Of a stretch of 64,000 nucleotides of DNA, positions 3,125 to 61,832 are shown piece after piece. Below the pieces are notes generated by a model. The model was not told where the DNA came from, ran no database searches, and was given only the letters and a program-made list of their open reading frames with translations. How positions within the stretch are numbered: position 1 is the stretch's first letter; every line of letters starts with the position of its first letter. The position numbers were made by a program, and so were the translations under genes. The stretch lies in NCBI GenBank assembly GCA_963709345.1, contig CAVPVX010000010.1, positions 1 through 64,000 on the forward strand, in the 5' to 3' direction. Origin of the DNA: an uncultured Actinomycetes bacterium. GTDB taxonomy: Bacteria > Actinomycetota > Thermoleophilia > UBA2241.

Positions 3125-5227
3125 TCAGTCAGCCCACGGGGTCACGCGGCAGAGGAAGCCCCGCAGCGTGGTCGCTCCCATCTCACGGCAGTACGGCGCG
3201 TCGCTGCTCGTCAGCGTGTTGATGTTCGCTTCGGCCCAACCGTGAAGATCCCGGACGTCGCGCTCCGGATACCACCAGAGGGGCTCGGCGACCACAACTC
3301 GCGGGTCGATGGCGTCGGACAGATGGGCCCGCTGGCGGGCTCGGCCGCGCTGAGTCTCCAGCGCGACCCAGTCGCCTTCCGCGATGCCCAGAGCCCCGGC
3401 GGTCTCCGGATGAATGATCGCCAGCGGCTCAGGATGTTGCCGGCGCAGCGACGCGACCTGCCTGCCGGTGGAGTGGTAGTACTCCGGCAGCTTCCAGCTG
3501 GTGAGTACGAGCGGGTACTGCTCGGCCAGGCCGGGCTCGCTAAGCGGTGTCTCCGGCGGCTCATGGTAGACGGGAACGGGGTCGAACCCCCACTCGGCCA
3601 GCTGCTTCGAGACGAGCTCCACTTTGCCCGAGGGTGTGGCGAACCCACCCAGCTCTTCGTGCGACTCGGCTCGAGCCGGCAGGAGCCAGCCGACGTCGCA
3701 CAGCTCCTCGAAGGAGAGGCCGGAGGGCTCCAGCAGATAGTCGAGGGTCTCGTGCTCGCCGGCCCAGAAGCGCTCGCCGAAGCCCATCTCGGATGCCAGT
3801 TCGTTGCAGATGCGCAAGTCGGACCATGCTTCGCCGACCTGCGCGACCTTCAGGATGGCGCTGACCACGGGGGTGTTCGAGGACTGGTGGATGCCGTCCG
3901 TCTCGAGGTACGTGGCCACCGGAAGGACGATGTCGGCGAGCTCGGCGGTGGGCGTCATGAACTGATCGGCCACGACGAGGAAGTCGAGGCTCTCCAGCGC
4001 GCGGCGGACCTCGTCCACACCGCTGTACGACTGCAGCATGGACGCTCCGGCCACGTATGCCGCCCTGACGGGGTACGGTTCGGCGGTCAGCATGGCTTTG
4101 ACGACCGTCTGGGGCAGGGCAGCGTAGTAGTTGGGCAGCATGCCCTGTTCCGCGCCGACCCTCCGCGCGCGCGTCTCGGGGGAGATCGCGTCCTGCTGGT
4201 TCAGTTCGGGTGAGCCGCCCGCGACCACGTTCGGCGGCACCCATGCGATCTCGCCGCCGGACCGCCCCACGTTGCCCGTGATGGCGCGCAGGATGGCCAG
4301 CGCACGTCCCGCCTGGAAGCTGTTGATCGTGCCGTCGATGCCCCATCCGCACTCAAGGATCGCGGGACGGTTGGTGGCATAGGTCCGCGCCAGGTCGCGG
4401 ACGGTCTCCGCCGGCACCCACGTCAGCCTCTCGGTCTCTTCGGGGGTGGAGGCGCGCACGGCCTCGCGAAGCTCGCCGAACCCCGTCGTCCATCGCTCCA
4501 CGAACTCCCCGTCGTGCAGGTCCTCCTCGATGACGACGTGGATGACGCCCAGCGCGAGCGCCAGGTCGGATCCCGGGCGCAGCTTCGCCCAGACGTCCGC
4601 CCGCTGTGCGTACACGGTGTCGACCGGGTCGACGGCGATGAGCTTCGCGCCCGCCGCCAGCGCCCGCTCCATCGCGACGTGGCGTGGCGGGTTCGTGGCC
4701 AGCGGGTCGGAGCCCCAGACGAGGAGGCACGCCGGGTCGTGCTCGTAGTCCCCCCGCGCGTCGAAGCCGTACGTCATCCGCGAGGCGTAGACCTGCGGTA
4801 CCCAGCAGATGTGCGAGGTCGAGAGGGCGTTGGGCGAGCCGAAGACGTTGGCGAGGCGCGCCAGGTAGCGGTCCTGGTAGCCCTTTGCCACACCACGGAT
4901 GAAGGCGACGCTCTCCGCGCCGTGGGACGCCTTCGCCTCGTTCAACCCCGCGGCGACGGCCTCGAGGGCGGTGTCCCACGAGACCGTTTCCCAGCGTCCC
5001 TCACCGCGCGCTCCCAGTCGCATCAGCGGGTGGGTGATGCGGCCGGGGCTGTCGAGGTACTCGAGGGAGGCGCGGCCTCTGCGGCAGATCACGCCGCGGC
5101 TCCCCGGATGCTCTGGGTCCCCCTCGATGGAGACGGGCCTGCCGTCCCTGATCTCGATGAGCACGCCGCATCCGGCCGTGCAGAGGGTGCAGGTGCTGCG
5201 GACGATCCCGTCCGGATGCTCGCTCAT
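3125..5227 (-). CDS. Molybdopterin (bis-MGD, DMSO reductase superfamily) oxidoreductase with 4Fe-4S, cytoplasmic
   Basis: CTLCTAGC...GVICRRG Fe-S motif, RITHPLMR, ADIVLPVA, TPSGKVEL, C-terminal molydopterin-binding domain; no TAT signal; GGAG RBS. Confidence 0.9.
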   Translation of the reverse strand: MSEHPDGIVRSTCTLCTAGCGVLIEIRDGRPVSIEGDPEHPGSRGVICRRGRASLEYLDSPGRITHPLMRLGARGEGRWETVSWDTALEAVAAGLNEAKASHGAESVAFIRGVAKGYQDRYLARLANVFGSPNALSTSHICWVPQVYASRMTYGFDARGDYEHDPACLLVWGSDPLATNPPRHVAMERALAAGAKLIAVDPVDTVYAQRADVWAKLRPGSDLALALGVIHVVIEEDLHDGEFVERWTTGFGELREAVRASTPEETERLTWVPAETVRDLARTYATNRPAILECGWGIDGTINSFQAGRALAILRAITGNVGRSGGEIAWVPPNVVAGGSPELNQQDAISPETRARRVGAEQGMLPNYYAALPQTVVKAMLTAEPYPVRAAYVAGASMLQSYSGVDEVRRALESLDFLVVADQFMTPTAELADIVLPVATYLETDGIHQSSNTPVVSAILKVAQVGEAWSDLRICNELASEMGFGERFWAGEHETLDYLLEPSGLSFEELCDVGWLLPARAESHEELGGFATPSGKVELVSKQLAEWGFDPVPVYHEPPETPLSEPGLAEQYPLVLTSWKLPEYYHSTGRQVASLRRQHPEPLAIIHPETAGALGIAEGDWVALETQRGRARQRAHLSDAIDPRVVVAEPLWWYPERDVRDLHGWAEANINTLTSSDAPYCREMGATTLRGFLCRVTPWAD

Positions 5228-5252
5228 TCGTTGTCTCCTCGTCTGGCGATGA

Positions 5253-6673
5253 TCACAGGCTGTCCGTTGCGGACTGCACGATCCCGTCGAGTGCTCTGCA
5301 CACGTCTTCGGGCAGTGGGTCGGGCGCGATCTCCGCGTTCCACAGGGCCGCGGCCCTCTCGGCGGCGCGCTCCACGGCGTCCCCGGCCCCCTGCGCCTCC
5401 CACGCGGCGTAGGGCGCGGTGTTCAGCAGGAGCGGCAGGTGGATCTCCTGCCGGTATTCCTCCTCGTGTGCTGGGCCCCGAGGTAGTCTGAGGGCGCAGG
5501 CCCGACGTCGTGGATCAGATCCAGCGCCAGCGACCGGTCGTCCACGCGGACGCCGCGCAGGTAGCGCTTGGTCATGGCGATGAGCTCGTCGTCGAGGAGG
5601 AGCTGGGGGTAGGCGTAGACGCAGTCCATGGACAGGCCTCCCGAGAACGATACGATGTTGCCGCCTCCCTGCGCGAGCAGCGGCACCTGCATCCCAACCT
5701 GCATCCCGTTCTGCCATCCGGCGGTGTTGCCGGTGACCATGGGGCACGCCGACCAGAATGGGATGTCGTTGCGATGCAGCAGTTGCGCTGCGGCGTTGCA
5801 CAGCAGGACTCCCTCGATGCCCGTGTAGACGCTGCCGCTGCGCATGTCCATCAGCATCGCCGAGAAGCCGGCGATCACGGGCGTTCCCGGGCCGACGGCT
5901 TGCGCCAGCACGATCTCGGCCATGATCTCCGCGAGCGCGACGACCAGCGTTCCGGCGAGCGTCGCCGGCCCATTGGCTCCCGGGGTCGGGCCGCTCCAGC
6001 ACAGGCACGGCCAGCGCCGCTCGGCCCACAGCATCAAGGCCTCGCACATGTTCTCCGGCAGCGACAGCGGCGATACCGGGCCGATCGCGTTCATGAAGGG
6101 CCGGCCGGCGGCGTCCGCCAGCTCGAGTTGCACGCGCCTGTCGACGCCGATACCGATGGGGCCGCACCCGACGACGGGCTTGCGGCCGTACTTCAGCGTC
6201 TCGGCCAGGATGTACTCGCCGGTGAGCTGCCGGGGGCAGTCGGAGACGGCCAGTGGCGAATTGAGCACGTCGATGCCGCCGACGTGGTCGATGAAGGTCA
6301 CCAGCTCGGCCACGTCGGCGAGCACGGCCGGGCGCTGCCTCCCGGACGCTCGATCCATGATGCTGCCGCCGCCCGAGACGGTGAAGGCGACGTGTTCCGG
6401 ATCGAGGACGACGTCGTCTTCGGGGGTGCGCCCGCTGTGGACAAAGGAGCGAGGCGTCAGGCGCAGCGCCCCCTCGACGAGCGCTCGAGGTATGCGCGCC
6501 CGGCGGGTCGCGTGATCGACCAGGCAGCCGGCGCTCTCCACTGCGCGCAGCGCCGGCTCGTGTGCGTACACGAAGCCGGTGTCCTCGAGGACGCGCAGCG
6601 CACCATCGAGGATGCGATCGACTTCGCACTCGCTCAGTGCCGTGGGGCGCCCCGGTGTTGCTGTGAGATCGAT
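5253..6673 (-). CDS. MttB-superfamily (non-pyrrolysine) corrinoid methyltransferase #1, frameshift near 5460
   Basis: LRVLEDTG, PVSPL, GPATLAGTLV, MDMRSG, LLLDDE, SLALDLIHDVGP; C-terminus continues in the adjacent frame; start codon uncertain. Confidence 0.8.
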
Positions 6674-6698
6674 GGCTACCTCACCGCTTGCAGGGCCG

Positions 6699-8222
6699 CT
6701 AAGTGAGAGAACCGACGGCAGTCTCGACTGCCTCGAGGATCTCGCCGGAGGCCACCAGGGCGGCCATGGCGTTGTGGTCGGGGTAGAGCGGCCGGTCGAC
6801 GTCCAAGTGGTCGACGTGGCGGCGGATGACGTCCTTCGCGGCGCGCACGCCCGTGCCGGGCTTGAACTCGCGGAAGTCGAGCGCCTGAGCGGCGCCCATG
6901 AACTCGATACCAAGCACGCCGTAGGCGTTCTCGAGGATCTGGCGGTTCTTGAGCGCCGTGTTCATGCCCATGGAGACGAAGTCCTCTTGGTCGGCGGCGG
7001 CCGGGATGCTCATCGTGCTCGCCGGCGCCGCCAGGATGCGCTGCTCCGTGATGAGCATGTCGGCGGTGTACTGGCTGAGCATCATACCGCTGTAGAATCC
7101 TGGGTTCGGCGTGAGAAAGTCGGGCAGGCCCTGGCTCGTCGCGGGATTCTCGAGACGGTTGAGCCGGCGCTCGCTCAGCACGCTGACCATGGTGATCGCC
7201 TGGCCGACGATCTCCATCGGCAGGCTGACCGGCGTGCCCTGGAAGTTGGCGCCCGTCAGCGTGAGCTTGTCCTCGGGTACGAAGATGGGGTTGTCGCCGA
7301 CGCCGTTGAGCTCGATCTCCACCTGGCTCTTCGCCCAGGCGAGCGCGTCGTGAGCGGCGCCGATGACCTGCGGCGACGACCGCATCGAGTAGGCGTCCTG
7401 CACCTTGGTCTTGATCTTGCCGGTGGCGAGGTCGCTGTCGTCGATGCACTTCTTGATCGCCGCGGCGCTGCGGATCGCGCCCGAGAAGCCGCGCAGTTCA
7501 TGCAGCTTGGCGTTGTACGGCTTGAGGTTGGCGAGCAGCGCCTCGAGGCTCATGGCGCAGGCGATCTCGGCCTGGCGGAGCCAGCGGTCGGCGTCCCAGC
7601 AGAGCAGCGCGCTCATCGCGGTGAGGACGTTGGAGCCGTTGATGGTGGCGAGGCCGTCGCGCGCCTCCAGCCCCGGGACGGGGATGCCGGCGCGCTCCAT
7701 GGCCTCGCGGCCGGGCAGGCGCTCTCCCTCGAAGAAGGCCTCGCCCTCGCCCATCATGAGGAGGGCGAGCTGGGCCATCGGGGCGAGGTCGCCGGAGGCG
7801 CCCACCGAGCCCTTCGAGCTGATGACCGGCGTGACGCCCTTGTTCAGCATCTCCACCAGCGTCAGCGTGATCTCGGGCCGGTTGCCGGAGTTGCCGTGCG
7901 CCTGCACGTTGATCCGCCCTGCCATGGCCGCACGCACGACCTCGAGCGGCGCCGGCTCGCCGATGCCGGCGGCGTGGTTGTAGACGAGAAAGCGCTGGAA
8001 CTGCTGGACCTGCTCGTCGTCGAGCACGATCTCGCTGAACTCGCCGATGCCCGTGTTGGTGCCGTACATGATCTCGCGGGCCTTGATCTTGTCTTCGATC
8101 ATGGCGCGGCACGCCTTGATGCGCTTGAGCGACGCCGGATCGAGCCCGACCTTCTCGCCGTCGCGGGCGATGCGGACGACCTTCTCGACGGTGAGCGACG
8201 CGCCGTCCAGGATGATGGTCAC
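6699..8222 (-). CDS. Histidine/aromatic amino acid ammonia-lyase family (MIO-forming, YNH variant)
   Basis: YGTNTGIG, GSVGASGDLAP, VQDAYSMR, DNP, GANFQG, DQEDFVSMG; GTG start with AAGGAG RBS. Confidence 0.9.
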   Translation of the reverse strand: MTIILDGASLTVEKVVRIARDGEKVGLDPASLKRIKACRAMIEDKIKAREIMYGTNTGIGEFSEIVLDDEQVQQFQRFLVYNHAAGIGEPAPLEVVRAAMAGRINVQAHGNSGNRPEITLTLVEMLNKGVTPVISSKGSVGASGDLAPMAQLALLMMGEGEAFFEGERLPGREAMERAGIPVPGLEARDGLATINGSNVLTAMSALLCWDADRWLRQAEIACAMSLEALLANLKPYNAKLHELRGFSGAIRSAAAIKKCIDDSDLATGKIKTKVQDAYSMRSSPQVIGAAHDALAWAKSQVEIELNGVGDNPIFVPEDKLTLTGANFQGTPVSLPMEIVGQAITMVSVLSERRLNRLENPATSQGLPDFLTPNPGFYSGMMLSQYTADMLITEQRILAAPASTMSIPAAADQEDFVSMGMNTALKNRQILENAYGVLGIEFMGAAQALDFREFKPGTGVRAAKDVIRRHVDHLDVDRPLYPDHNAMAALVASGEILEAVETAVGSLT

Positions 8223-8770: not shown

Positions 8771-10215
8771 ATGGGAGACACACTGAAGCTTCGCCTGCTC
8801 TCCACCGAGCAGGTGAGCACGATGCGCGAGAAGTGCCTCTATCTGCTTTCGACGATGGGCATGAGGATCGACCACGAAGGAGCGCTTCAGATCCTCGCCG
8901 ACGCCGGCGCGGACGTCGACCGCGAGGCGCACGTCGTGCGCTTTCCGGTCGACCTCATCGAGTCGGCGATCGAGTCGGTCCCGAGTGAGCTGACTGTCAA
9001 GGGCGCCGACCCCAGGCACGACTGCCCCATCCCGCACCCCGAGGGCCTGTTCTACTCGTGCACCAACATCCAGAGCATGCTGCACCACGACGTGGACTCG
9101 AAGCGCTTCGAGGACAATTCGGTCGCGCGATACTCGGAGTGGTGCCAGATCATCGAGACCCTGGACCACGCCGACATCTGTGCCATCCAGACGCCGATGG
9201 ACGTCCCGGCGGAGAGCGCCGAGGTCCACGCGCTCAGCATCCAGATGCAGAACACGACCAAGCCGCTGTGGATGCACGCCTTCAGCCTCGAGGCAGTGCC
9301 GTTCATGTTCGAGCTCATGGTCGCGCGCATGGGCAGCGTCGAGGCGCTGCGCGAGCAGAGCGTCGCGATCATCAACCCCGGCACCGTCTCGCCGTTCATC
9401 ATGAAGGCGATGGACGCCGAGGAGATCATCCAGGCGTGCCACCACGGCGTGCCGATCTCGGCGGACGGCCACGTGATGGCCGGCTTCACCAGTCCCATGA
9501 CGGTCGCCGGCAGCGTCGTGCAGAACTGCGCCGAGGTCCTCGCGCACATCATCCTCTGCCAGGTCGTCAAGCCCGGGACATCCCGCGATGATGACCCAGT
9601 TCAACGTGCCCGGCGACATGGCCACCGGGTTCTCCACGCTGGCCACTCCGTCGGCGAACGTCCAGCGTTCCGCCGGCGTGCAGCTCTGCAAGGAGGGATT
9701 CGGTATCCCCGTCTCGGGCTGTCCGATCATGACCGACACCTACGCCTCCGACGGCAGGTCGGTGGCCGAGAAGGCTCTCGGCGGCCTGATGAGCATCATG
9801 GCCGGCATGGACATCGCCTACGGCGTCGGCCGCCTGGGCGGCGCCAGCCTGGCCAGTCCCGCCCAGCTCGTCATCGACAATCAGCTGATCGCGCTGCTCA
9901 AGGAGTACGTCGGCGGCGTGCGGGTGGACGACGACTACCTCGCCGTCGACGAGATCGTCGAGGCCGGCATCGGCGGGAGCTTCGTGCACAGCAAGCACAC
10001 GCTGCGCCACTGCCGTGACTACGTCGAGCCCAGCCTCTTCCGCTTCCAGCTGCAGCAGACCTGGGAGGCCGAGGGGGAGAAGGATCTCTACGAGCGCGCC
10101 GTGGACGAGTACCGGCGGCTCAAGACCCAGATCAAGCCCGTCGACATCGCCGGACGACGTGCGGCGCGACATGGACGCCGTCGTCGCCCGCGCCGACAAG
10201 GCCCTCTGCCCGTGA
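8771..10215 (+). CDS. MttB-superfamily methyltransferase #2, frameshifts near 9580 and 10150
   Basis: NTTKP, TVSPF, SPMTVAGSVVQNCAEVLA, QLVIDNQ, LAVDEI, HTLRH spread over three frames; AAGGAG RBS. Confidence 0.85.
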
Positions 10216-10352: not shown

Positions 10353-10978
10353 GTGTCGATCAACGACATCAGGCAGGCCGTGCTCAGCGGCGATGAGCAA
10401 GGCGCCGCCGAGCTGGTCGCGCGCCGAGCTCGACGCCGGCAGCACGGCGCAGGAGATCATGGATTCCGCGCTGATCAGCGCCATGGACGAGGCCGGCGCC
10501 AAGATGGCCACCGGCGAGCTCTTCATCCCCGAGGTGCTGGTCGCGGCCGACGCCATGAAGGCCGGCCATGGACGTGCATCACCCCGCATCTCGTCGGCGC
10601 GGCCGCGGGAGCCCGAGGGACGGTCGTCATCGGAGCCGTCGAGGGCGACGTGCACGATATCGGCAAGAGCCTCGTCGCGCTCATGCTCGACGGCGCCGGT
10701 TTCGAGGTGCACGACCTCGGCGTCGGACGTGGCGCCCGAGGCCTTTGTGGCTACGGCACAGGAGCACGACGCCGACATCGTCGCCATGTCGTCCCTTGAT
10801 GGTGACGACGATGCCGAAGATGAAGGTCGTCATCGAGGCGCTGCACGAGGCCGGCCTTGCGGCGAAGCCGATCGTCGGCGGCGCGCCTCTGACGCAGGCC
10901 TTCGCCGACGAGATCGGCGCCGCCGGGTACGCGCCGGATGCCGGCGGAGCGGTGAAGCTGGTGCGCGAGCTTGTCTGA
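10353..10978 (+). CDS. Methyltransferase corrinoid (B12-binding) protein, MttC/MtbC-like, several frameshifts
   Basis: ELFIPEVL, EGDVHDIGK (DxHxxG), VGGAPLTQAFADEIGAAGYAPDA; AGGAGG RBS. Confidence 0.85.
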
Positions 10979-11345
10979 ATACCTGGGCAACGGAAAGAGG
11001 GGGCCGGCGGAGGCGTCCGCCGGCCCTGCCGCCATGTCGACGCAGGTGGGCGCAGTTCCCGCGACCCGCGTTCGGTGGATCGCTCCGGGCCGGGAGGTGC
11101 GGCCATGGGGGTAGGCGACCTCCTGATCATCGATTTGACCACGTGTTCACTGCGTCGTTCGCCGCAAGGTGACGAAGATCATTGCTGCTCCCGCGTGCGA
11201 CACGCGGACGGAGTACGGCAACACGACCGTCAAATGGGCGAGCGACGCGCGCCCCCCGTTGGTTGCAGCTGCTCGCGCAGCGACTTCGTGGGCGCGGCTT
11301 GGATCGACGAGAGACATGCGAGTACCCCCACGCGAAAGGAACCCA

Positions 11346-18217: not shown

Positions 18218-18386
18218 ACCATCCGGCGGTGTCCACTCCCGTCTTCAGCTCTGGAGGTTCGAATGGACGGTCACCGGTCGGCGGGCAGCACGGAGGCTCC
18301 CGCCGCCCACCAGGCGGCGCGCTTCTGAGTCACCCGAGCCGTGCACGCCGTTGCTCGCACTCACCAATAAGGGGGAACACACAGAC

Positions 18387-20087: not shown

Positions 20088-20127
20088 GCGCTGTCTTTGG
20101 CGACGACGCTGGGAGCGTGGTGTGACC

Positions 20128-23332: not shown

Positions 23333-23333
23333 C

Positions 23334-26414: not shown

Positions 26415-26441
26415 GGCCTTGGGCACCGAGAGGAACCGCAC

Positions 26442-27548: not shown

Positions 27549-27552
27549 CGGC

Positions 27553-36333: not shown

Positions 36334-36336
36334 GCG

Positions 36337-45178: not shown

Positions 45179-45200
45179 CGAGCAAAGGGAGAGAGCGGCG

Positions 45201-48990: not shown

Positions 48991-49108
48991 TCGGTGGGCG
49001 GCGTGACGGGCACGACGATCTGCCGGGTCCGGGTCGCAACGCGGGCCCGGGACTGCCACACTCCAAGGGAGCCTTGACAGGGCTCTCGATGACGGCCAAG
49101 GAGCAGTA

Positions 49109-52922: not shown

Positions 52923-52935
52923 GTGCCGGGGGCTG

Positions 52936-54093
52936 ATGGCTCCTTACGAGCACGCGGGCGTCCCGCGCATCGTCGCGGGCGCGGGCGCCCTGGAGAGGCT
53001 GCCCGGCACTCTGGCAGGGCGGACCGTCGATGCGGTCGTCCTGGTGTCGGACCACGGGCTGGAGCAGGCCGGCCTCGTCGACCGCGTCGTCTCCCTGCTT
53101 GGTGACGCCGCCGATGTCCACACGTATCTCGCGTCTTCCGGCGAGCCGGAGGCCGCCGACGTGGAAGCAGCGGCGGCTCTGGTGCGCGAGTGGCCGGGCG
53201 CGACGGTCATCGGCCTGGGGGGAGGCACGGCGATGGACATCGCCAAGCTCGCCGCCGCCACGGCTCCCGCCGGCGAGCCCGTCGACCACTACTTCCTGCG
53301 CCCCGACGCGTTCACCGGCAAGGCGCCGTCCGTCCTCATCCCGACCACTTCCGGCACCGGGTCGGAGGTGACGCGCACGGCGATCTGCAACGACGCGGAG
53401 GGGCACAAGCTCTGGTGTTGGGGCGAGAAGCTGCTGCCGGAGCTCGTCGTCCTGGACCCGACGCTCACGAAGTCGCTCCCTGCGACCCTGACCGTGACGA
53501 CCGGCGTCGACGCCTTGGCGCATGCGATCGAGGCGGTGACCGGGCGGCGGCGTAACGCGTTCGCCACCGCGCACGGGTTGCATGCAGTCCGCCTCGTCGC
53601 CCGGCACTTGCGGATGGCGATCGCCGCTCCCGGCCACGTCGAGACGCGGCAGCGCATGCAGGAGGCCGCCTGCCTCGCCGGTCTCGCGCGGGAGAACGGA
53701 GGCACCGGGATCGCCCACACGCTCGGGCACGCGCTTGGATCGGCATACGGCGTTCCTCACGGTGTCGCCGTGGCGGCGGCGCTCGGCGCGGTGCTGCCCT
53801 GGAATATCATCGGCGACCAGGACCTCTTCCATCCGGTCGCCGAGGCCTTCGCGCCGTCGGCGCGGGCCGCCGACCTGCCGGCGCTGTACGACAAGCTCCT
53901 GGCCGACGCGGGGTTCGCGGCCGCGCTCGAGCCGTACCGGCAGACGCGCGTGGACGCCGGCGTGCTCGCCGAGGCATGTCACCTCCCCGAGAACGCGCCC
54001 ACGCTGCGTAACAACGCTCGCGCCGCCAACGACGTCGACGTCAAGTCACTCTGCATCACGCTCGAGCTCGCTTGGAACGCCGCTGCGGTCTGA
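52936..54093 (+). CDS. Iron-containing alcohol dehydrogenase family
   Basis: GLGGGT.MD.AK, PTTSGTGSEVT, DALAHAIEA, HTLGH, HG. Confidence 0.9.
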   Translation: MAPYEHAGVPRIVAGAGALERLPGTLAGRTVDAVVLVSDHGLEQAGLVDRVVSLLGDAADVHTYLASSGEPEAADVEAAAALVREWPGATVIGLGGGTAMDIAKLAAATAPAGEPVDHYFLRPDAFTGKAPSVLIPTTSGTGSEVTRTAICNDAEGHKLWCWGEKLLPELVVLDPTLTKSLPATLTVTTGVDALAHAIEAVTGRRRNAFATAHGLHAVRLVARHLRMAIAAPGHVETRQRMQEAACLAGLARENGGTGIAHTLGHALGSAYGVPHGVAVAAALGAVLPWNIIGDQDLFHPVAEAFAPSARAADLPALYDKLLADAGFAAALEPYRQTRVDAGVLAEACHLPENAPTLRNNARAANDVDVKSLCITLELAWNAAAV

Positions 54094-54251
54094 GCGCTTC
54101 CGGCGGCGCTCCCATCTCTGCGCCATCCGGTCGGGTTCGGTCGAGTACGGACACAATGGATAGTTTTTCCAGCTCTCAGCGGTAGATTGTTCTCTCTTCG
54201 TCTTGACTCGACGAACATTTCGCTGAATACTGCGGTGGTTGTCAGCACTCG

Positions 54252-54728
54252 GTGGAGGTGGCTGTGGACGCTCTCGATCGCGATGTTCTTCTGGCCCTCC
54301 AGGCCGACGGACGCAAGTCGAATCTCGCCCTGGCGCGCGCGCTAGACCTCTCGCCGTCGGCGATGCTCGGCAGGGTGCGGCGCCTCGAGCGCAGCGGCGC
54401 CATCCGCGGGTACCGCGCCATCATCGACCCGTCCGCGCTGGGCATCACCGTCCGCGCCATGGTGGTGGCCCGCCTGCGCGAGCATAGCGAGCGCTCCATC
54501 AGGGAGTTCGAGAAGGGCATTCAGAGCGTGCCCGGCGTACGCGCCTGCTACCACGTCACCGGGCAGTACGACATGGTCCTGGAGCTGGCCCTCCGCGATC
54601 TTGACCACCTCGGCCAGCTCATCCGCGTCGACATCGCCCGCATCCCCGGCGTCGTGAACCTCGAGACCATGCTGATCATGGCCGAGCCGGTCGCCGACGA
54701 AGGTTGGCCCGTCATCCCAGAAGAGTAG
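54252..54728 (+). CDS. Lrp/AsnC family regulator
   Basis: LDRDVLLALQADGR, RVRRLE..GAIRGY, CYHVTGQYD. Confidence 0.92.
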   Translation: MEVAVDALDRDVLLALQADGRKSNLALARALDLSPSAMLGRVRRLERSGAIRGYRAIIDPSALGITVRAMVVARLREHSERSIREFEKGIQSVPGVRACYHVTGQYDMVLELALRDLDHLGQLIRVDIARIPGVVNLETMLIMAEPVADEGWPVIPEE

Positions 54729-54776
54729 TCCGCGGCAGCAGCGCCGCGCCGACTCCCCGCACAGGAGGTCCCCCGT

Positions 54777-55626
54777 ATGTCAGCAAAGAAGGGTCTTTTC
54801 GACCTGCACGAGATGAAACGCGCCGGCGAGAAGATCGCCTGGCTCACCGCCTATGACTACCCGACCGCCAGCTTCGAGGAGGCCGCCGGCGTCGACATGA
54901 TTCTGGTCGGCGACTCGCTCGGCATGTGCGTCTACGGCTACCAGGGCACGGTGCCGGTCACCATGGACCAGTGCATCGTGCACAGCGAGGCGGTGCGCCG
55001 CGGCGCGCCCAGCACTTTCGTCATCGGCGACATGCCGCTGGGCAGCTACCAGGCGTCCGACGAGGATGCGGTGACGAACGCCATCCGCTTCCTCAAGGAG
55101 GCGAACGTCGACGCGATCAAGCTCGAGGGCGGCGTGCGCACCGTGAGCCGCGTCAGGGCGATCCTCGACGCCGGGGTCGCCGTCTGCGGCCACATCGGCC
55201 TCACGCCGCAGAGCTCCGGACAACTCGGCGGCCACAAGGCCCAGGGCCGCACGCTCGAGTCCGCCAAGCTGGTGGTCGAGGACGCCCGCGCCCTCTACGA
55301 GGCGGGCGTCCAGCTGCTGCTCGTCGAGGCCGTGCCACCCGAGGTCGCCGGCTTCATCCGCGACGAGCTGCCGATCCCGGTGCTCGGCATCGGCGCCGGC
55401 GAGGATGTCGACGGCCAACTGCTCATCGTCACCGACGTGCTCGGCACCTTCGCGGCCTTCACGCCCAAGTTCGTGAAGAAGTACGCCGACCTCGCCGGCG
55501 TCTCGACCGCCGCGCTCACCGAGTACGTCAAGGACGTGCGCGGCGGCGCCTTCCCCGAGGAGCAGCACTGCTACCGCATGCTCGAGGGCGAGAACGAGAA
55601 GTTCGCGGAGTACACCGAAGGAATGA
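54777..55626 (+). CDS. panB: Ketopantoate hydroxymethyltransferase PanB family (stop obscured by an indel)
   Basis: LTAYDY, LVGDSLG, DMP, KLEGG, HIGLTPQ, GIGAG, DGQ, PKFVK; end inferred from the overlapping ATGA at 55623-55626. Confidence 0.85.
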
Positions 55627-56851
55627 CTTCACGCGCCGCGACAGACGACGTTCACCGCGGCGCAGCGTATCGCGCAGCTCGGCACCGAGACGGTCTTCGC
55701 CGTCTCGGCCGAGGCTGCGGCGCTCGCCGCTCAAGGCAAGACGGTCTACCCGTTCCACCTCGGAGATCTCAATCTCCCGACGCCGGAGAACGTCGTCGAG
55801 GCGTCGTTCCGGGCGATCCGGGACGGCAGGACGACCTACTGCCCCAACGCCGGCATCCCGCAGCTGCGGGATGCTCTGGCCGACGACGTGAGCCGCGCCC
55901 GCGGCCTCGACTACACGGCGGAGAACGTCTCCGTGCAGCCGGGCGGCAAGCCGGTGATCGCCAAGTTCCTCCTGACGCTCATGGACCCGGGCGACGAGGT
56001 GCTCTACCCGAACCCCGGGTTCCCGATCTACAGCTCGCTGATCGACTTCTTCGGCGGCGTGGCCGTGCCGTACACGTACACCGAGGGCAGCGACCGCTTC
56101 CACCTCGACCTCGAGGGTATCGAGCGACGCATCACCCCGCGCACGCGCCTCCTGATCCTCAACGACCTGCACAATCCCACGGCCGCCGAGTGCACGCCGG
56201 CGGAGCTCGAGAGGCTCGCTGAACTCGTCGTCGAGCACAACCTGCTCGTCCTCAGCGACGAGGCGTACTTCGATGTGCGCTTCACGGGCCGGAGCCGCTC
56301 GCTGGTCTCCCTGCCCGGCATGCGCGAGCGCTGTGTCATCCTCTACACGTTCTCCAAGAAGTACGCGATGACGGGGTGGCGACTCGGTGCTGCGATCGGG
56401 CCCAAGCCGATCATCGACATCATCACGAAGCTCAACGTCAACATCGAGTCGTGCCCCAATCACTTCGTTCAGTACGGCGCTGTGGCGGCGCTCACCGGCG
56501 ACCAGAGCGGTCCCCGCGAGATGATGGTGACGCTCAAGGGCCGCCGCGACGCCGCCCTCGAGGTCCTGAACGCGACGCCCGGAATCCGCTGCCTGACGCC
56601 GGAGACGACGTTCTACCTGTACCCCAACGTCACCGGCGCCCTCGAGCTGACGGGCTGCGCCTGATCACGAGAGCTTCCGCCGCCTCGTCCTCGAGCACAC
56701 CGGCGTGTCGTTCTGCACGCGCCTGCACTTCGGCCACGCGCTCGACGGCGAGGACCAGTACTATCTGAGGCTCGCTTACTCGGGCCTCGACACCGCGCAG
56801 ATCCAGGAGGGCCTCGGCAAGCTCAAGGCCTTCGTCGAGAGTCACACATGA
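55623..56851 (+). CDS. PLP-dependent aminotransferase class I/II, frameshifted at both ends
   Basis: GGKP, PGFPIY, NPT, SDEAY, FSKKYAMTGWRLG, LRLAYS. Confidence 0.85.
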
Positions 56852-56871: not shown

Positions 56872-58326
56872 ATGAACGACCTGCCCACCTCTGTGCTGAA
56901 CAGCCGTCTGACGCTCCTCTCGGAGGAGAAGTGCCAGATGATCTACGACGCCGCCCTCACGATCATCGCCGACATCGGCATGACCGTGCCGCACGCCGAA
57001 GCACGCGAGATGCTCGTGAAGGGCGCGGGAGCCACCGTCGAGGGCGACGACCTCGTCAGGATCCCGCGTGAGGCCGTGGACAGGGCGCGCGAGACCGTGC
57101 CGTCCATGATCCCGGTCTACGACCGGGGCGGCGAGCTCGCGATGCAGCTCGGCGGCCACAACTCGTACTTCGGCACGGGCTCGGACCTCATGAGCATCTA
57201 CGACTTCGAGACTCGCGAGCGCCGCCAGAGCGTGCTCGCCGACACGGCGCGCATGGCGCACCTGTGCGACGGCCTCCCCAACATCGACTTCATCATGTCG
57301 GCCGCTCACCCGCACGACATCGACGCGTACGCCTCCTACCTCGAGTGCTACCGCGCCATGGTGAGCAACACGACCAAGCCGATGGTCATGACCGCCGCCG
57401 GCAAGGACGACATCGAGGTCATGTGGAGGATCGCCTGCGAGTTCCGCGGCGGCGCGGAGGAGCTGCGCGAGAAGCCATACTTCATCCAGTACGGCGAGCC
57501 CGTCAGCCCGCTGCAGCACGCGCCAGAGGTCCTGGACAAGCTGCTCTTCTGCGCCGACTGGGGCATCCCGCTGATCTACTCCCCGGCGCCGATCGCCGGC
57601 GCCACGGCGCCGATCACCCACGCCGGCCACATCGTTCAGGCAGTCGCCGAGTCGCTCTTCGGCGTCGTCATCCACCAGCTGCGCCGTCCCGGCTCGCCGC
57701 TGCTCACCGGCATGGGCCCGGTCAAGCTCGACATGAACACCGTGCAGGCTCTCTACAACTCGGCCGAGTACTACACGACGTATCTCGGCATCACCGAGAT
57801 GGCCAAGTGGATGGATATCCCCAACTGGGGCTACGCCGGCACCAGCGACTCGCAGTGTGTCGACGCCAACGCCGGCATCGACATCACCGAGCTCACCTTG
57901 CTCTCCATGCAGGCCGGCTCCAACCTCAACCACGACATCGGCTACCTCGACTTCGGTCTCACCGGCGCCGGCGAGCTCGTCGTGCTCACGGACGAGGTCA
58001 TCTCGATGAACCGGCGCGCGCTCGAGGGCATCGAGGTCACCGAGGAGACGCTGGCGCTCGACGCCATCGCCGCGGTGGGTCAGGGCGGCGACTTCCTCGG
58101 CCAGAAGCACACCAAGCGGCACGTGCGCCAGCTGCAGTGGCGGCCGACCGTCCTCAATCGCAGCACCCGGAAGAACTGGGAGGCCGAAGGCTCGCTCGAC
58201 GCCACCGAGAAGGCGCATCGCAAGCTCGTGGACATCATGACCAACCACAAGCCCGAACCGCTTGGCGCCGAGATGAAGGCCAAGGTCGACGCGATGGTCG
58301 ACGCCTTCGTAGCGGCCGGCAAGTGA
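56872..58326 (+). CDS. MttB-superfamily methyltransferase #7
   Basis: Intact 484 aa ORF; YFGTGSD, NTTKP, EPVSPL, NLNHDIGYLDFG; same subgroup as #3 and #4. Confidence 0.93.
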   Translation: MNDLPTSVLNSRLTLLSEEKCQMIYDAALTIIADIGMTVPHAEAREMLVKGAGATVEGDDLVRIPREAVDRARETVPSMIPVYDRGGELAMQLGGHNSYFGTGSDLMSIYDFETRERRQSVLADTARMAHLCDGLPNIDFIMSAAHPHDIDAYASYLECYRAMVSNTTKPMVMTAAGKDDIEVMWRIACEFRGGAEELREKPYFIQYGEPVSPLQHAPEVLDKLLFCADWGIPLIYSPAPIAGATAPITHAGHIVQAVAESLFGVVIHQLRRPGSPLLTGMGPVKLDMNTVQALYNSAEYYTTYLGITEMAKWMDIPNWGYAGTSDSQCVDANAGIDITELTLLSMQAGSNLNHDIGYLDFGLTGAGELVVLTDEVISMNRRALEGIEVTEETLALDAIAAVGQGGDFLGQKHTKRHVRQLQWRPTVLNRSTRKNWEAEGSLDATEKAHRKLVDIMTNHKPEPLGAEMKAKVDAMVDAFVAAGK

Positions 58327-58381: not shown

Positions 58382-59032
58382 GTGTCCGAAGAGCTCTACG
58401 CACAGATGAAGCAGACCGTGATCGACGGCGAGGCCGAGGACGCCGAGCGGCTCGCCCAGGAGGGCCTCGACGCCGGCCTGCCCGCCGCCGACATCCTCGA
58501 CCAGGGCTTCGTCAAGGGCATCGAGGAGGTCGGCGACCTCTTCGGCCGCGGCGAGTTCTTCCTCCCCGAGCTCGTCCAGGGCGCCGAGGCGATGAAGGCC
58601 GCCGTGGCCGTCCTGCAGCCCGCCCTCGACGCCTCCGGTGGCGGCCGTAAGGCGCTCGGCAAGGCCGTCGCCGGCACCGTCGCCGGCGACATCCACGAGA
58701 TCGGCAAGACGATCGTCTGTTCCATGCTCTCCGCCGCCGGCTTCACCGTCACCGACGTCGGCTGCGACGTACCGGTCGAGGACTTCGTTGCCGCGGTCAA
58801 GGACTCCGGCGCCGACCTGCTCCTGCTCTCCGCCCTGCTGACCACGACGATGCCCAACCAGCAGAAGACGATCGAGGCGCTCAAGGAGGCCGGCCTGCGG
58901 GACTCGGTCAAGGTGATGATCGGCGGCGCCCCGACGACCCGCGCCTGGGCCGACGAGATCGGCGCCGACGGCTACGCCGAGGACGCGATCGAGGCCGTGG
59001 CCACCGCCAAGACGATCCTCGGGGTCGGCTGA
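58382..59032 (+). CDS. Methyltransferase corrinoid protein (MttC/MtbC-like)
   Basis: FFLPEL, GDIHEIGK, SALLTTTM, MIGGAP, IGADGYAEDA. Confidence 0.93.
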   Translation: MSEELYAQMKQTVIDGEAEDAERLAQEGLDAGLPAADILDQGFVKGIEEVGDLFGRGEFFLPELVQGAEAMKAAVAVLQPALDASGGGRKALGKAVAGTVAGDIHEIGKTIVCSMLSAAGFTVTDVGCDVPVEDFVAAVKDSGADLLLLSALLTTTMPNQQKTIEALKEAGLRDSVKVMIGGAPTTRAWADEIGADGYAEDAIEAVATAKTILGVG

Positions 59033-59318: not shown

Positions 59319-60296
59319 GTGGACCTTACCTATCTGAGCCGGAAGGATGTCGAGGGCCTCGGGGTGTCCATGAAGGAAGTCCTCGACGCGCTCGACCGCG
59401 GCTTTGCCGCGAAAGGCCGGGGGAACGTCGAGATGCCGCCCAAGCCCGGTATCCACCCGCGGCCCGACTGCTTCATCCACGCCATGCCGGCGTACGTCCG
59501 GGAACTGGATGTCGCCGGCGTCAAGTGGGTCTCCGGCTACCCGCCCAACACCGCCAAGGACCTGCCTTACATCAACGGTCTGCTGGTGCTGAACGATTGC
59601 GAGACCGGCGTGCCGCTGGCCGTCATGGACTGTGTCTGGATCACCGCCATGCGTACCGGCGCGAGCGTCGGGATCTCTGCCAGATACCTGGCGCGGGCCG
59701 GCAGCGCGACGGCTGCAGTCGTCGGGTGCGGCGTCCAGGCGCGCACCAGCCTCATGGCGCTGGTCGAGGAGCTGCCGGCGCTCGCCGAAATTCGCTGCTA
59801 TGACCTCGCGCCGCAGGCGGCGCAGCGATTCATCGCCGACATGTCGGCGCGCTTCCCGGCGCTCCGCTTCGTCTCCTGCCGTTCGGCGCCCGAGGCCGTG
59901 CGCCCGGCCGACGTCACGGTCACGGCGATCCCCATCGTCGTCGATCCCAGCCCCGACCTCGACGCCGGCACTCTCAAAGAGGGCGGTCTGGCCGTCGCGC
60001 TCGACTACGACTCGGCCTGGAGCAGCGCAGCGATGCGGGAGTGCGACAGGTTCTGTTCGGACGACACCGGCCAGCTTCTGGCTACCAGGGAGCACGGCGT
60101 GCACTTCGGTGGCACCCCCGCGGTCTTCAGCGCCGATCTCGGCGAACTCGCCGCGGGTCTCAAGCCGGGACGCGAGAGCGACGCCGAGCGCATCTTCTCG
60201 ATGAACATGGGCATCGCCGTCCACGACGTCGTGACGGCTGCGTTGGTGTACAAGCGGGCTCTGGAGCGTGAGGCGGGCGCTTGCCTCCAACTCTGA
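59319..60296 (+). CDS. Ornithine cyclodeaminase / mu-crystallin family #2
   Basis: HAMPAY, GVKWVSGYP, TAMRTGA, GCGVQA, GIAVHD. Confidence 0.88.
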   Translation: MDLTYLSRKDVEGLGVSMKEVLDALDRGFAAKGRGNVEMPPKPGIHPRPDCFIHAMPAYVRELDVAGVKWVSGYPPNTAKDLPYINGLLVLNDCETGVPLAVMDCVWITAMRTGASVGISARYLARAGSATAAVVGCGVQARTSLMALVEELPALAEIRCYDLAPQAAQRFIADMSARFPALRFVSCRSAPEAVRPADVTVTAIPIVVDPSPDLDAGTLKEGGLAVALDYDSAWSSAAMRECDRFCSDDTGQLLATREHGVHFGGTPAVFSADLGELAAGLKPGRESDAERIFSMNMGIAVHDVVTAALVYKRALEREAGACLQL

Positions 60297-60437
60297 TGCG
60301 GCCGGCGGGCGCTTGCAGAGCGACGGTCGCGTCGAGACGCACGAGGTCTGTTCGGTGCGCGAGCGTGGAGAGGCGACGGTGAAAGGGCGTGCACTCCCCC
60401 GGGCCGAGCTGCAGGCGAACGAGAGCGAGGAGGCGTC

Positions 60438-61832
60438 GTGACGAGACCGTCACTGGATGAACAGGGATGTGCGCGGGTCCACACCGCAGCGGTGCGGCTT
60501 CTGGAGACGGTCGGCTGCGACGTTCTTGATCCCGAAGCGCTGGCGTTGCTGGCTGCGCACGGAGCCACCGTCGACGGCGCGCGTGCCCGCTTCGGTGAGG
60601 ACCTCGTCGCGAAGGCTCGAGCCACGGCGCCGTCCGGGTACACCCTCGCCGGTCGCCGGCCCGAGCTCGACCTGCGCATCGCGCTCGACGCTCCGCCTGT
60701 ACTGGCGAGCGCGTCGGGACCGCCGTTCGTGCTGAGCGGCGACGAGTGCCGTCCGGGGACGTTCGCGGACCTGCGGACGGCCGTGGCGCTCGCCCACCTT
60801 TCGCCAAACATCGCCGTGCTTGGCTACAGCGTGGAGCCGAACGACGTGCCCGAGGATCGGCGTGCGCGGCTGATCTCGCATGCGCACGTGACGGGCAGCG
60901 ACAAGATCAGCCGTTTCACCGTCACGACCTTGGACGAGCTGCGGGTCGCGATGGACGTGCTCGAGATACTCTACGGCGCGCAGTGGCACGAGCGTCCGCG
61001 CCTCTGGACCGTCATCAATACGACCTCCCCCTTGCAGTTCTCGGCTGCGGGCGCGCAGGTGCTGCTGCGTCTGGCTCGGCTCGGCCAGCCGGTGCTGGTC
61101 GCGGTCTGCGCCATGGGCGGCACCACGGCTCCCATCACCTTGGCCGGCCTCCTCACCGTCCAACACGCGGAGCTTCTCGTGGGGCTCGTCCTCTCGCAGC
61201 TCGCCCGCCCGGGGTGCCCCTTCCTCTACGGGGGCACCTCGTCTGTCTCTTCGATGCAGACGGGCGCCCTGATGATCGGCGCTCCGGAGTACTGGTCGCT
61301 GATGGAAGCGACCGTGCAGCTCGGCCACTGGCTGGGCGCGCCGGTGCGCGCCGGCGGGTCCATCACCGACTCGCACCTCCCCGATGCGCAGGCCGGCATC
61401 GAGTCGGCGCTGGCTGCGGACGCCGTCCTTCGCATGGACGTACAGTGCGTGCTGCACGCCGCCGGCATCCTCTCGTCGTTCAACTGCTACTCGCCCGTCA
61501 AGTTCGCGATCGACGACGAGGTGCTCACGGCGCTTCGCATCGCCAGGCGGCCCGTCGTCATCGACGACGAGACCCTGGCGCTCGACGTGATCGCCGCCGC
61601 CGGACCGGGCGGCACCGTGCTGGGCCAGGCTCACACCCGCCGCCATGCCCGCGAGGCCGCCAGAAGCACCATCATGAATCGCGCTCCCTACGAGACGTGG
61701 CGCGGCCTCGGCGGCCGGGACCTGGCCACGGTGGCCGCGGAGCGCGTGGCCGCGCAGCTCGAGCAGTACGAGCCTCCCGACGACCTCGACCCGGTGATGC
61801 GCCGGCAGCTCGACGCGTACTGCCTGGAGTAG
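60438..61832 (+). CDS. MttB-superfamily methyltransferase #8
   Basis: NTTSPL, APITLAG, QHAELL, GAPE, DAQAG.ES, HAAGILSSF; C-terminus PPDDLDP..RRQLDAYCL shared with #5. Confidence 0.9.
   Translation: MTRPSLDEQGCARVHTAAVRLLETVGCDVLDPEALALLAAHGATVDGARARFGEDLVAKARATAPSGYTLAGRRPELDLRIALDAPPVLASASGPPFVLSGDECRPGTFADLRTAVALAHLSPNIAVLGYSVEPNDVPEDRRARLISHAHVTGSDKISRFTVTTLDELRVAMDVLEILYGAQWHERPRLWTVINTTSPLQFSAAGAQVLLRLARLGQPVLVAVCAMGGTTAPITLAGLLTVQHAELLVGLVLSQLARPGCPFLYGGTSSVSSMQTGALMIGAPEYWSLMEATVQLGHWLGAPVRAGGSITDSHLPDAQAGIESALAADAVLRMDVQCVLHAAGILSSFNCYSPVKFAIDDEVLTALRIARRPVVIDDETLALDVIAAAGPGGTVLGQAHTRRHAREAARSTIMNRAPYETWRGLGGRDLATVAAERVAAQLEQYEPPDDLDPVMRRQLDAYCLE

Follow-up and report, generated by a model that had tools for sequence, protein, structure and literature searches.

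An MttB methyltransferase array joined to histidine utilisation genes in an uncultured Thermoleophilia bacterium: a candidate route for methylated histidine catabolism

The window analysed here, the first 64,000 nucleotides of one contig (C10:1-64000) of an uncultured Thermoleophilia bacterium, carries an array of methyltransferase genes of the MttB superfamily interleaved with histidine utilisation (hut) genes and with three lyases of the histidine ammonia-lyase (HAL) family. It is best explained as part of a catabolic island of about 95 kb for methylated nitrogen compounds in a pyrrolysine-using member of this class. The reading towards which we lean, on the strength of comparisons with relatives, is a corrinoid-dependent demethylation of N-methylated histidine, probably hercynine, that would feed the Hut pathway, with a lyase on a side route.

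Close relatives of the genome (3.11 Mb in 11 contigs, 69-70% GC, 98% complete) are metagenome-assembled genomes labelled Thermoleophilia or Actinomycetota. Because of the high GC content, genes of the window were called by codon-position GC; they were named with Pfam and NCBIfam profiles, and MttB loci were located by a six-frame PF06253 search of the whole genome. The 64 MTTB-matching pieces obtained were merged by eye into about 48-50 MttB loci genome-wide. The window makes up only 2% of the genome, yet it holds 12 of the 64 pieces, and all four Lyase_aromatic matches and both urocanase matches of the genome fall in it. A preliminary description of the window, made from the sequence, had counted eight MttB genes, two DxHxxG corrinoid proteins, three HAL-family genes, hutU, hutI, a formiminotransferase, an importer and molybdenum (Mo) enzymes, and this inventory was confirmed by profile searches. 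Two of the lyases do adjoin an MttB gene, as it had also stated: HAL2 abuts MttB#1 and faces MttB#2, and HAL3 is convergent with MttB#6.

Linkage of mttB and hut genes in the window and in relatives

The methyltransferases, corrinoid proteins, lyases, hut genes and regulators of the window are as follows, where MIO stands for 4-methylideneimidazole-5-one.

5274..6700, minus strand: MttB#1, divergent; PF06253 locus 5274-6643 in pieces 5456-6643 and 5274-5462, with a frame break near the C-terminus
6699..8195, minus strand: HAL2, a histidine ammonia-lyase paralogue with an intact MIO motif (GSVGASGDLAP); 491.5 bits against the HutH cut-off of 539.15
8783..10127, plus strand: MttB#2 (PF06253), with a frame break near 9580
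10393..11172, plus strand: second corrinoid protein, broken; DVHDIG at nucleotide 10647, TIGR02370 35.6 bits
12777..13691, minus strand: IclR-type regulator, divergent from the array of MttB#3, #4 and #5, an arrangement kept in relatives
13844..15284, plus strand: MttB#3, clade A; PF06253 locus 13844-15245, one extra base at 14622
15288..16712, plus strand: MttB#4, clade A, intact; PF06253 locus 15297-16691
16736..18112, plus strand: MttB#5, clade B, intact; PF06253 locus 16736-18103
27553..28977, plus strand: HAL3, an MIO-less lyase of the ergothionase/trimethylammonia-lyase kind; GSLGAS-DLAA in place of the Ala-Ser-Gly motif, 24-residue deletion, TIGR01225 269 bits
29046..30405, minus strand: MttB#6, separate clade; PF06253 locus 29046-30363, extra bases at 29344 and 30362
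34523..36333, plus strand: hutU, the sole urocanase gene of the genome, with 12 frame-breaking differences
41440..45178, plus strand: hutH-hutI-ftcD, all above equivalog cut-offs
41440-42963, plus strand: hutH, with the Ala-Ser-Gly (MIO) motif; TIGR01225 643.2 bits against a cut-off of 539.15
~43086-44279, plus strand: hutI; TIGR01224 453 bits against 298.15
44276-45178, plus strand: ftcD; 329.1 bits against 221.25
56872..58326, plus strand: MttB#7, clade A, intact; PF06253 locus 56902-58302
58382..59032, plus strand: cognate corrinoid protein, DIHEIG; TIGR02370 220.6 bits against a cut-off of 215.3
60438..61832, plus strand: MttB#8, clade B, intact; PF06253 locus 60450-61823
61896..62621, minus strand: TetR regulator with a BetI-type C-terminal domain (Pfam), adjoining MttB#8

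These genes are laid out in five blocks (HAL2/MttB#1-2; MttB#3-5/importer/HAL3; the histidine operon; accessory genes; MttB#7-8). In the first, HAL2, MttB#1 and a bis(molybdopterin guanine dinucleotide) (bis-MGD) enzyme lie on the minus strand, divergent from MttB#2, a corrinoid protein and a kinase-like gene. The second runs from IclR through MttB#3, #4 and #5, a binding protein, bis-MGD enzyme B, OppC, OppD, OppF and OppB and an opine-dehydrogenase-family gene to HAL3, and ends with MttB#6, convergent with HAL3, and then an indolepyruvate-type oxidoreductase and a PaaK-like ligase. The third is a coherent histidine operon of hutU, a four-subunit 2-oxoglutarate:ferredoxin oxidoreductase, sucCD, hutH, hutI and ftcD. 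The fifth holds MttB#7, a corrinoid protein, a gene of the ornithine cyclodeaminase (OCD) family and MttB#8, then the TetR gene, which is followed by an aldehyde ferredoxin oxidoreductase gene.

The preliminary description had named absence of the mttB-hut linkage in relatives as a finding that would speak against it; the linkage is conserved. In a sister family of the same class, 16 genomes gave a HAL match; in seven of them MttB and corrinoid protein genes are fused into the hut operon, and the remaining nine have plain hut operons (L105 and L106 of these viewed with 1.5-kb flanks only). The gene order of the fused operons takes several forms, with gaps of 4 to 26 bases between hutH and MttB genes, and at loci L107-L110 hutH itself is flanked on both sides by MttB. 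Viewed over 20 kb, the fused operons are complete. Locus L111 reads hutU, corrinoid protein, clade-A MttB, hutH, two clade-B MttBs, an Fe-S protein, hutI, FTCD, cyclodeaminase, methyl-tetrahydrofolate (methyl-THF):corrinoid methyltransferase and a GntR/UTRA regulator, with intergenic gaps of 4 to 90 bases by open reading frame (ORF) coordinates; its hutH scores 697 bits against 539 and its methyl-THF:corrinoid methyltransferase 321.7 against 259. Like the window, locus L112 has in addition a bis-MGD enzyme, a gene of the opine dehydrogenase kind and an Opp system in divergent orientation. A further 26 hut loci, drawn from seven other families, were found to lack an MttB within about 6 kb.

Among 24 HAL2 loci of the window's own family, an MttB stands inside the 1.5-kb flanks of 11, and two others have the IclR gene that lies ahead of the array; the MttB#1-Mo tail 3' of HAL2 was not seen within the same flanks of the 23 other HAL2 loci. 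Relatives of MttB#2 in the sister family (L127 and L130; 47-49% identity) are in one frame and have a HAL paralogue and a corrinoid protein as neighbours. They belong to a second hut-like locus of that family (L127, G100:C14:9800-23300), in which the MttB#2-like, corrinoid and HAL set is divergent from IclR, hutU-like (46%), hutI-like (40%) and FTCD genes, the HAL paralogue being 54% identical to the family's hutH.

The hut link is specific to certain branches of the MttB superfamily. In a tree of 62 sequences (quick IQ-TREE, with support from the Shimodaira-Hasegawa-like approximate likelihood ratio test, SH-aLRT), the hut- or HAL-adjacent MttBs fall into two clades, A and B, both with an SH-aLRT of 100. 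Clade A contains MttB#3, #4 and #7, the copy at C10:91916 and one copy per fused operon of the sister family, and also takes in eight MttBs that adjoin distant HAL3 homologues. Clade B contains MttB#5, MttB#8 and the remaining sister-family copies, and its sister group holds four more HAL3-adjacent MttBs. Altogether, 13 of the 18 MttBs beside distant HAL3 homologues belong to clade A, clade B or the sister group of B. MttB#6 lies in another clade, and MttB#1 and MttB#2 are long branches outside clades A and B. All eight MttBs had been presented as parts of one hut-linked system; hut-linked relatives were traced for MttB#2, #3, #4, #5, #7 and #8, and MttB#1 and #6 sit in other branches. A scan for clade-A loci in metagenomes, which took in close relatives only (58-94% identity), gave a HAL-family gene in 34 of 73 loci and in 27 of the 45 that span at least 6 kb; as these loci are mostly close kin, the figures show consistency, not independence.

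All eight window loci match PF06253 (cut-off 25 bits), their main pieces with 109 to 359 bits, and they reach only 165 to 358 bits against TIGR02369, the model of true trimethylamine MttB, whose equivalog cut-off is 525. None of the eight has an in-frame TAG codon for pyrrolysine, and the pyrrolysine column holds Thr, Val, Ile or Cys; seven other MttB genes of the genome carry one TAG each, in this column, and form one clade. We mapped the glycine-betaine-binding residues of MtgB, which the accessible part of their source gives as Y97, R312, H348 and F356 (PMC13080624), via alignments onto all MttB rows. Clade A (MttB#4 and #7) has S/W/H/G at these positions and is therefore, with one residue of four kept, unlike MtgB; judged by these residues, it is not an MtgB. 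Clade B, which gives 297 bits against MtgB, has S, R, H and F in MttB#8 (three of four) and S, R, Q and F in MttB#5 (two of four), and Y97 is absent from both clades. An alpha-betaine could be bound by the clade-B pocket, which would be roomier at position 97.

The three lyases and the neighbours of HAL3

HutH and HAL2 both carry the MIO motif. HAL2 has histidine-type residues, including the His of the S/N-H motif, falls slightly below the HutH cut-off and has orthologues (at least 81% identity) only in the window's own family. HAL3 is of another kind: the MIO-less feature and the deletion are kept in 21 of 21 aligned members of its clade, which is present in 280 species genomes. The best solved relative of HAL3 is ergothionase 6s7j (182.4 bits; no HAL entry exceeds 142.7), and the clade profile likewise gives 274.7 bits for ergothionase against 230.1 for HAL. 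Residues Y54, Q251, R257, N287 and E390 do not vary across the clade. The ligands named for Swoo_3913 and HAL in the accessible text of the S. woodyi preprint are the catalytic Tyr, Gln, Arg, Asn, His and Glu, and the same portion of that source has Lys384 of T. denticola ergothionase bind the thiolate; this lysine aligns to Ile360 in HAL3, which is nearly invariant across the clade. HAL3 is predicted to act as an MIO-less trimethylammonia-lyase and not as an ergothionase in the strict sense. Its relatives release trimethylamine (TMA) from hercynine, ergothioneine and N-pi-methyl-hercynine, and the substrates of the characterised MIO-less lyases are all N-alpha-trimethyl histidine derivatives, as far as the available portions of the Shewanella and T. 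denticola literature go. For the elimination of trimethylamine groups that had been suggested for this region, HAL3 is a real candidate, with no MIO motif and ergothionase as its closest relative.

Neighbours of HAL3 homologues were counted in 80 genome loci, 59 of which have full 3-kb flanks. Within 3 kb, 23 of the 80 have an MttB and 26 a homocysteine methyltransferase like that for betaine (BHMT-like, PF02574), never both; one or the other is found in 49 of the 80 and in 40 of the 59 with full flanks. In Gaiellales-type genomes the BHMT-like gene (PF02574, 133.6 bits) lies directly 3' of the MIO-less lyase, as at L050:11440-12468, an arrangement seen at 26 loci among L023-L080. As two unrelated methyltransferase families stand beside one lyase clade, we argue from these neighbourhoods that lyase and methyltransferase share one methylated amine as substrate, the order of action not being told by the linkage. 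Opp-type genes are found within 10 kb in 50 of the 80 loci, and HAL3 stands beside hut genes in L002, L009, L015 and L017.

Proposed pathway and competing readings

The remaining genes on which a pathway could draw are these.

3125..5227, minus strand: bis-MGD molybdo/tungsto-enzyme A of the acetylene hydratase family (Molybdop_Fe4S4, Molybdopterin and Molydop_binding), last gene of the HAL2-MttB#1-Mo set
18351..19743, plus strand: family-5 solute-binding protein of an Opp-type importer (18351-26372 overall); two SBP_bac_5 pieces in different frames, break near 19030
20122..22167, plus strand: bis-MGD enzyme B of the acetylene hydratase family, with a 59% identical copy in the fused mttB-hutH operon L112 of the sister family
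22394..26372, plus strand: OppC, OppD, OppF and OppB-type permeases and ATPases (Pfam)
26394..27556, plus strand: opine-dehydrogenase-family gene, with single-base insertions at 26513, 26820 and 27250
30600..34448, plus strand: indolepyruvate-type 2-oxoacid:ferredoxin oxidoreductase and PaaK-like CoA ligase, also beside HAL3 in L005, L006 and L009
36337..41419, plus strand: 2-oxoglutarate-type ferredoxin oxidoreductase (four subunits) and sucCD succinyl-CoA synthetase (Pfam/NCBIfam)
45117..56664, plus strand: accessory genes (Pfam/NCBIfam), namely an enolase-family gene of the mandelate racemase/muconate lactonizing enzyme (MR/MLE) kind, OCD/mu-crystallin, a serine-dehydratase-like gene, a broken Mo hydroxylase of the xanthine dehydrogenase (XDH) type, an iron-dependent alcohol dehydrogenase, AsnC, panB and an aminotransferase
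59319..60296, plus strand: OCD/mu-crystallin-family enzyme, between MttB#7 and MttB#8

What the comparisons establish is the identity of the genes, the clades to which they belong and their conserved linkage in operons; from these we infer a substrate, an order of steps and roles for the two MttB clades. The substrate would most likely be N-alpha-trimethylhistidine (hercynine) or its partly methylated forms, imported by the Opp-type ATP-binding cassette (ABC) system. A clade-B MttB, which keeps carboxylate-binding and cation-pi residues of MtgB, would take a methyl group from the quaternary alpha-nitrogen, a clade-A MttB with its different pocket would take the remaining methyl group or groups, and the methyls would pass via the corrinoid protein to THF. 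The freed histidine would be converted by HutH, HutU, HutI and FtcD to glutamate and formimino-THF, and the glutamate carbon would run through the 2-oxoglutarate:ferredoxin oxidoreductase and succinyl-CoA synthetase. As a second entry, HAL3 may eliminate the methylated amine directly and yield an enoate, the amine being harvested by pyrrolysine-type methyltransferases for TMA and dimethylamine (DMA) 25 kb downstream. Catabolism of methylated histidines, as the preliminary description had proposed it for the whole region, is supported in part, by the conserved mttB-hut link, the clade-A pocket and the HAL3 candidate, all of it comparative evidence; MttB#1 and #6 fall outside the linked clades.

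The signs of pyrrolysine use are complete in this 70% GC Thermoleophilia genome. It encodes tRNA-Pyl (CUA) at C11:14991-15063 and PylS at C11:18405-19130 (318 bits against a cut-off of 178), and the gene for a dimethylamine methyltransferase (MtbB), C10:85633-87645, is interrupted where expected, by an in-frame stop at position 354/355 of the profile. This gene, a corrinoid protein, a TAG-MttB, a clade-A MttB and an Fe-S protein lie 25-31 kb past the window on the same contig, so that TMA or DMA, once released, would be usable. The Fe-S protein is conserved (330-345 residues; L111:14320-15315, L038:8723-9757 and C10:94407-95444); its N-terminal ~260 residues match no family and two [4Fe-4S] motifs lie at the C-terminus. 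It always adjoins a clade-A MttB, standing between that gene and HAL3 or before hutI, and may serve to activate the corrinoid protein reductively. Just past the window, at C10:69256-76266, a GntR/UTRA regulator gene is accompanied by a second ABC system of the Opp type, which has a fused double ATPase. Besides tRNA-Pyl, ARAGORN reports a tRNA-Sec at C1:120215-120312 and four tRNA-like genes, 91-94 bases long, whose anticodon loops are odd (shown with 4-base or 2-base anticodons), at C6:75189-75281, C7:326638-326731, C7:566478-566568 and C11:29254-29345.

The identity of several neighbours was settled through intact orthologues. That of hutU (L002:13575-15251) scores 954.5 bits against the TIGR01228 cut-off of 375. 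A thiourocanate route was considered and rejected, as the L002 urocanase fails both thiourocanate hydratase models (694.9 against 930 for NF058530 and 736.1 against 880 for NF058531); by these scores the lineage of the window urocanase is that of true hutU and not of thiourocanate hydratase. The opine-dehydrogenase-family gene has an intact orthologue at L005:8827-9987 (Octopine_DH, 40.6 bits against 30). Among the 21 closer loci, eight have it immediately 5' of HAL3, and in a fused operon of the sister family (L112:6570-7676) it adjoins MttB; it could oxidise a secondary N-alkyl amino acid. The indolepyruvate-type oxidoreductase and the PaaK-like ligase also adjoin an MttB#6-type gene in L005, L006 and L009 and could turn an arylpyruvate, perhaps imidazolepyruvate, into an aryl-acetate with a gain of ATP. 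MR/MLE, OCD, serine dehydratase and XDH genes accompany hut or HAL3 in L015 and L017. Enzyme A has acetylene hydratase 2e7z as its best solved relative (E 2e-96), and enzyme B falls only into generic acetylene hydratase and molybdopterin clusters in Protein Atlas. The literature that we found does not state the enzyme family of the thiourocanate desulfhydrase of gut anaerobes, with which these Mo enzymes might be compared, and any role for them here is a guess.

Several observations weigh against demethylation of hercynine to histidine. We know of no non-pyrrolysine MttB that removes more than one methyl group or acts on anything but quaternary amines, and full demethylation to histidine would need chemistry new to the MttB family. 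No sequence feature points to hercynine by name. The window has no gene for a methyl-THF methyltransferase (MT2), the sole homologue lying on contig C3 with 33% identity. MttB copies per fused operon vary (A+B; A+B+B; A plus a distant A-like copy), which does not fit one enzyme per methyl group, and all fused operons were found in one bacterial class, whose members are not independent. The hut genes are rare beside HAL3 outside the window's family, with hutU within 10 kb in only 4 of the 80 loci. The imidazole-binding His is Ser in the window's HAL3 subclade and His in a distant one; taken together with the replacement of Lys384 by Ile, this means that the substrate of HAL3 may not be an imidazole. 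The MIO-less lyases studied so far require the trimethyl group, according to the discussion in the S. oneidensis preprint, the part of it available, which makes a poor fit with a lyase acting after a demethylase. Lastly, frame breaks affect four of the eight MttBs, hutU, the binding protein and one corrinoid protein of the window.

These breaks bear on whether the system runs in this genome at all. Split between frames are MttB#1, #2, #3 and #6, the second corrinoid protein, the solute-binding protein, hutU, the XDH enzyme and the opine-dehydrogenase-like gene, and our claims about the system therefore rest on its intact relatives. Eighteen breaks were mapped to the base: three in the opine-dehydrogenase-like gene, one in MttB#3, two in MttB#6 and 12 in hutU (sites in 34765-36086). 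A programmed frameshift in MttB#2 and #3, both of which break at the conserved K-P-G-x-P motif, was rejected because their orthologues are in one frame and the break in MttB#3 is a single extra T. Uniformly poor assembly as a cause found no support, given six frame changes relative to the intact ORFs of a same-genus genome in 15.4 kb of the window, none in 34.7 kb elsewhere, and rpoB and rpoC each in one open frame. The same figures, along with a sole urocanase gene that carries 12 frame-breaking differences, speak for the view that the island is not running in this genome, being either a remnant in decay or a stretch that was mis-assembled locally, and the pathway may be dead here. Gene-specific decay and a local consensus artefact are both plausible causes. 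The kind of change looks more like an artefact than like decay, since 17 of the 18 breaks are insertions (16 of one base and one of two; the other is a deletion) at non-homopolymer sites; many are a G inserted after C or T and before C, and two create GATC. The breaks are also packed into certain genes while their neighbours (kor, sucCD, hutH, hutI, ftcD, HAL2, HAL3 and MttB#4, #5, #7 and #8) are clean. A search of sequencing runs for the words of 26400-36390 found none that contained as many as half of them, with 0.23 as the highest share. We hold a silent or mis-assembled island to be a tentative view, though one to be taken seriously.

Among alternatives for the chemistry itself, the one that fares best has the lyase act first: HAL3 would cleave hercynine or some other aromatic amino-acid betaine to TMA and an enoate, and pyrrolysine-type MttB and MtbB would demethylate the amine, the adjacent non-pyrrolysine MttBs serving other substrates. 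This scheme, partly complementary to the corrinoid route, draws on the ergothionase-like, MIO-less nature of HAL3, the TMA release known for its relatives from the parts of the literature cited above, its position beside hut genes in four loci, the seven TAG-MttBs with tRNA-Pyl and PylS, and the MtbB, corrinoid protein and TAG-MttB genes 25 kb downstream. It leaves unexplained why hutH lies between MttBs in the sister family, where no HAL3 homologue was seen in the retrieved stretches of the fused-operon genomes, and why a betaine-type methyltransferase stands beside the lyase in 49 of 80 loci, and the two substitutions in the lyase pocket (Lys384 to Ile, imidazole His to Ser in the subclade) tell against it. 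We regard it as doubtful.

A general island for betaines and one-carbon (C1) units appears less probable still. The MttBs would then act on common osmolyte betaines (glycine, proline or hydroxyproline betaine), with hut genes as neighbours through a shared fermentative metabolism of THF-bound C1 units and amino-acid carbon or through island-style accretion. With some 48-50 MttB loci in the genome chance neighbours are easy, MttB#8 of clade B keeps three of the four MtgB residues (297 bits against MtgB), its neighbouring regulator has a BetI-type domain, and the MR/MLE and OCD-family genes are said to resemble those of a proline-betaine pathway. Chance or shared metabolism accounts poorly for hutH interleaved with MttBs at gaps of 4 to 26 bases, in several orders and with a GntR/UTRA regulator adjoining, for a hut link specific to clades, for the pairing of two different methyltransferase families with the MIO-less lyase, and for a clade A that lacks the carboxylate-binding Arg of betaine enzymes.

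We would also call unlikely the fullest form of the hercynine proposal, in which three claims hold jointly: hercynine is degraded without TMA release, the HAL3 clade consists of dimethylamine-lyases, and the Mo enzymes strip the sulfur of ergothioneine. Clade-B MttB would remove the first methyl group, and clade A, whose pocket is like that of a pyrrolysine enzyme except for a Thr where pyrrolysine would stand, would then demethylate the tertiary and secondary amines without pyrrolysine, to histidine for HutH. The HAL3 clade would act after one demethylation by an MttB or BHMT-like enzyme, acetylene-hydratase-like Mo enzymes would feed the same route, and the carriers would be soil and sediment Thermoleophilia. 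Least probable of all is a one-step demethylation of ring-methylated histidines, N-pi- or N-tau-methylhistidine, to histidine by clades A and B each: two MttB clades do form the conserved core beside an MIO-bearing HutH that needs a free alpha-amino group, and a protonated N-methylimidazole would be a cationic methyl donor like a quaternary amine, but clade B keeps MtgB residues that hold a carboxylate near the methylated nitrogen, a better fit to an alpha-N-methyl group, and clade A pairs with an MIO-less lyase whose known relatives need the N-alpha-trimethyl group.

Relation to known systems and meaning

To our knowledge, most of the many paralogues of the MttB superfamily have no known substrate. 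The kind of system found here is known; what would be new is its substrate class and its wiring. Like MtgB/MtgC/MtgA of Desulfitobacterium hafniense (PDB 2QNE, 9YCE), it pairs a non-pyrrolysine MttB-superfamily methyltransferase with a DxHxxG corrinoid protein and, in relatives of the window, with a pterin-binding methyl-THF methyltransferase, and clade B keeps R312, F356 and, except in MttB#5, H348. It differs in the S/W/H/G residues of clade A, the missing Y97 of both clades, the position of its genes in or beside hut operons and HAL-family lyases, and the two or three MttB paralogues per corrinoid protein.

MtpB, MtcB and MtyB of Eubacterium limosum, whose host has many paralogues, reportedly act on proline betaine, carnitine and gamma-butyrobetaine, respectively. 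They too are MttB-superfamily enzymes for quaternary amines beyond glycine betaine, as the accessible part of one report confirms for MtyB and MtcB (PMC8604678); judged by their descriptions, they are set apart in that none is reported beside histidine utilisation genes.

HAL3 shares with ergothionase (T. denticola, 6S7J) and with the Shewanella lyases Swoo_3913, SO_3057 and SO_3299, described in the available portions of their sources as trimethylammonia-lyases for histidine betaine or N-pi-methyl-histidine betaine, the HAL fold without Ala-Ser-Gly, the loop shorter by one residue, and the catalytic Tyr and the Gln, Arg, Asn and Glu ligands. Unlike them, it is predicted from its start to be cytoplasmic, has no flavocytochrome partner, carries the Ile, the Ser and the 24-residue deletion, and pairs with MttB or BHMT-like methyltransferases instead of urocanate-type reductases. 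The hut genes correspond to the canonical pathway with glutamate formimidoyltransferase, hutH, hutI and ftcD being above their cut-offs and the hutU lineage passing TIGR01228; unlike that pathway, the set in the window is joined to ferredoxin-dependent 2-oxoglutarate oxidation, succinyl-CoA synthetase and corrinoid methyl transfer and is accompanied by two extra HAL paralogues.

[quoted passage not shown] The bis-MGD enzymes of the window have 2E7Z as best solved relative or fall into acetylene hydratase clusters; unlike MES, they have three Mo domains only (700 and 681 residues) and no desulfurase domain in Pfam. A part for them in the sulfur chemistry of ergothioneine or hercynine would be a guess by analogy, drawn from the likeness of both to acetylene hydratase. 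In our literature searches, no publication was found that links MttB to hercynine or ergothioneine, and among the papers listed none joins the MttB superfamily with hut terms or connects MttB with a histidine betaine.

Hercynine and ergothioneine are bulk products of fungi and actinobacteria, and their known breakdown goes through ergothionase-type lyases with release of TMA. If the corrinoid route is true, it would be a new substrate class for the MttB superfamily, and demethylation all the way to histidine would be a non-pyrrolysine demethylation past the quaternary step. The fused operons of the sister family are intact, compact gene sets suited to expression and assay, and the MIO-less lyase with its two unrelated methyltransferase families offers a second, independent handle on the same chemistry. 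Anoxic soils and sediments would then hold a sink for hercynine and ergothioneine that yields no trimethylamine.

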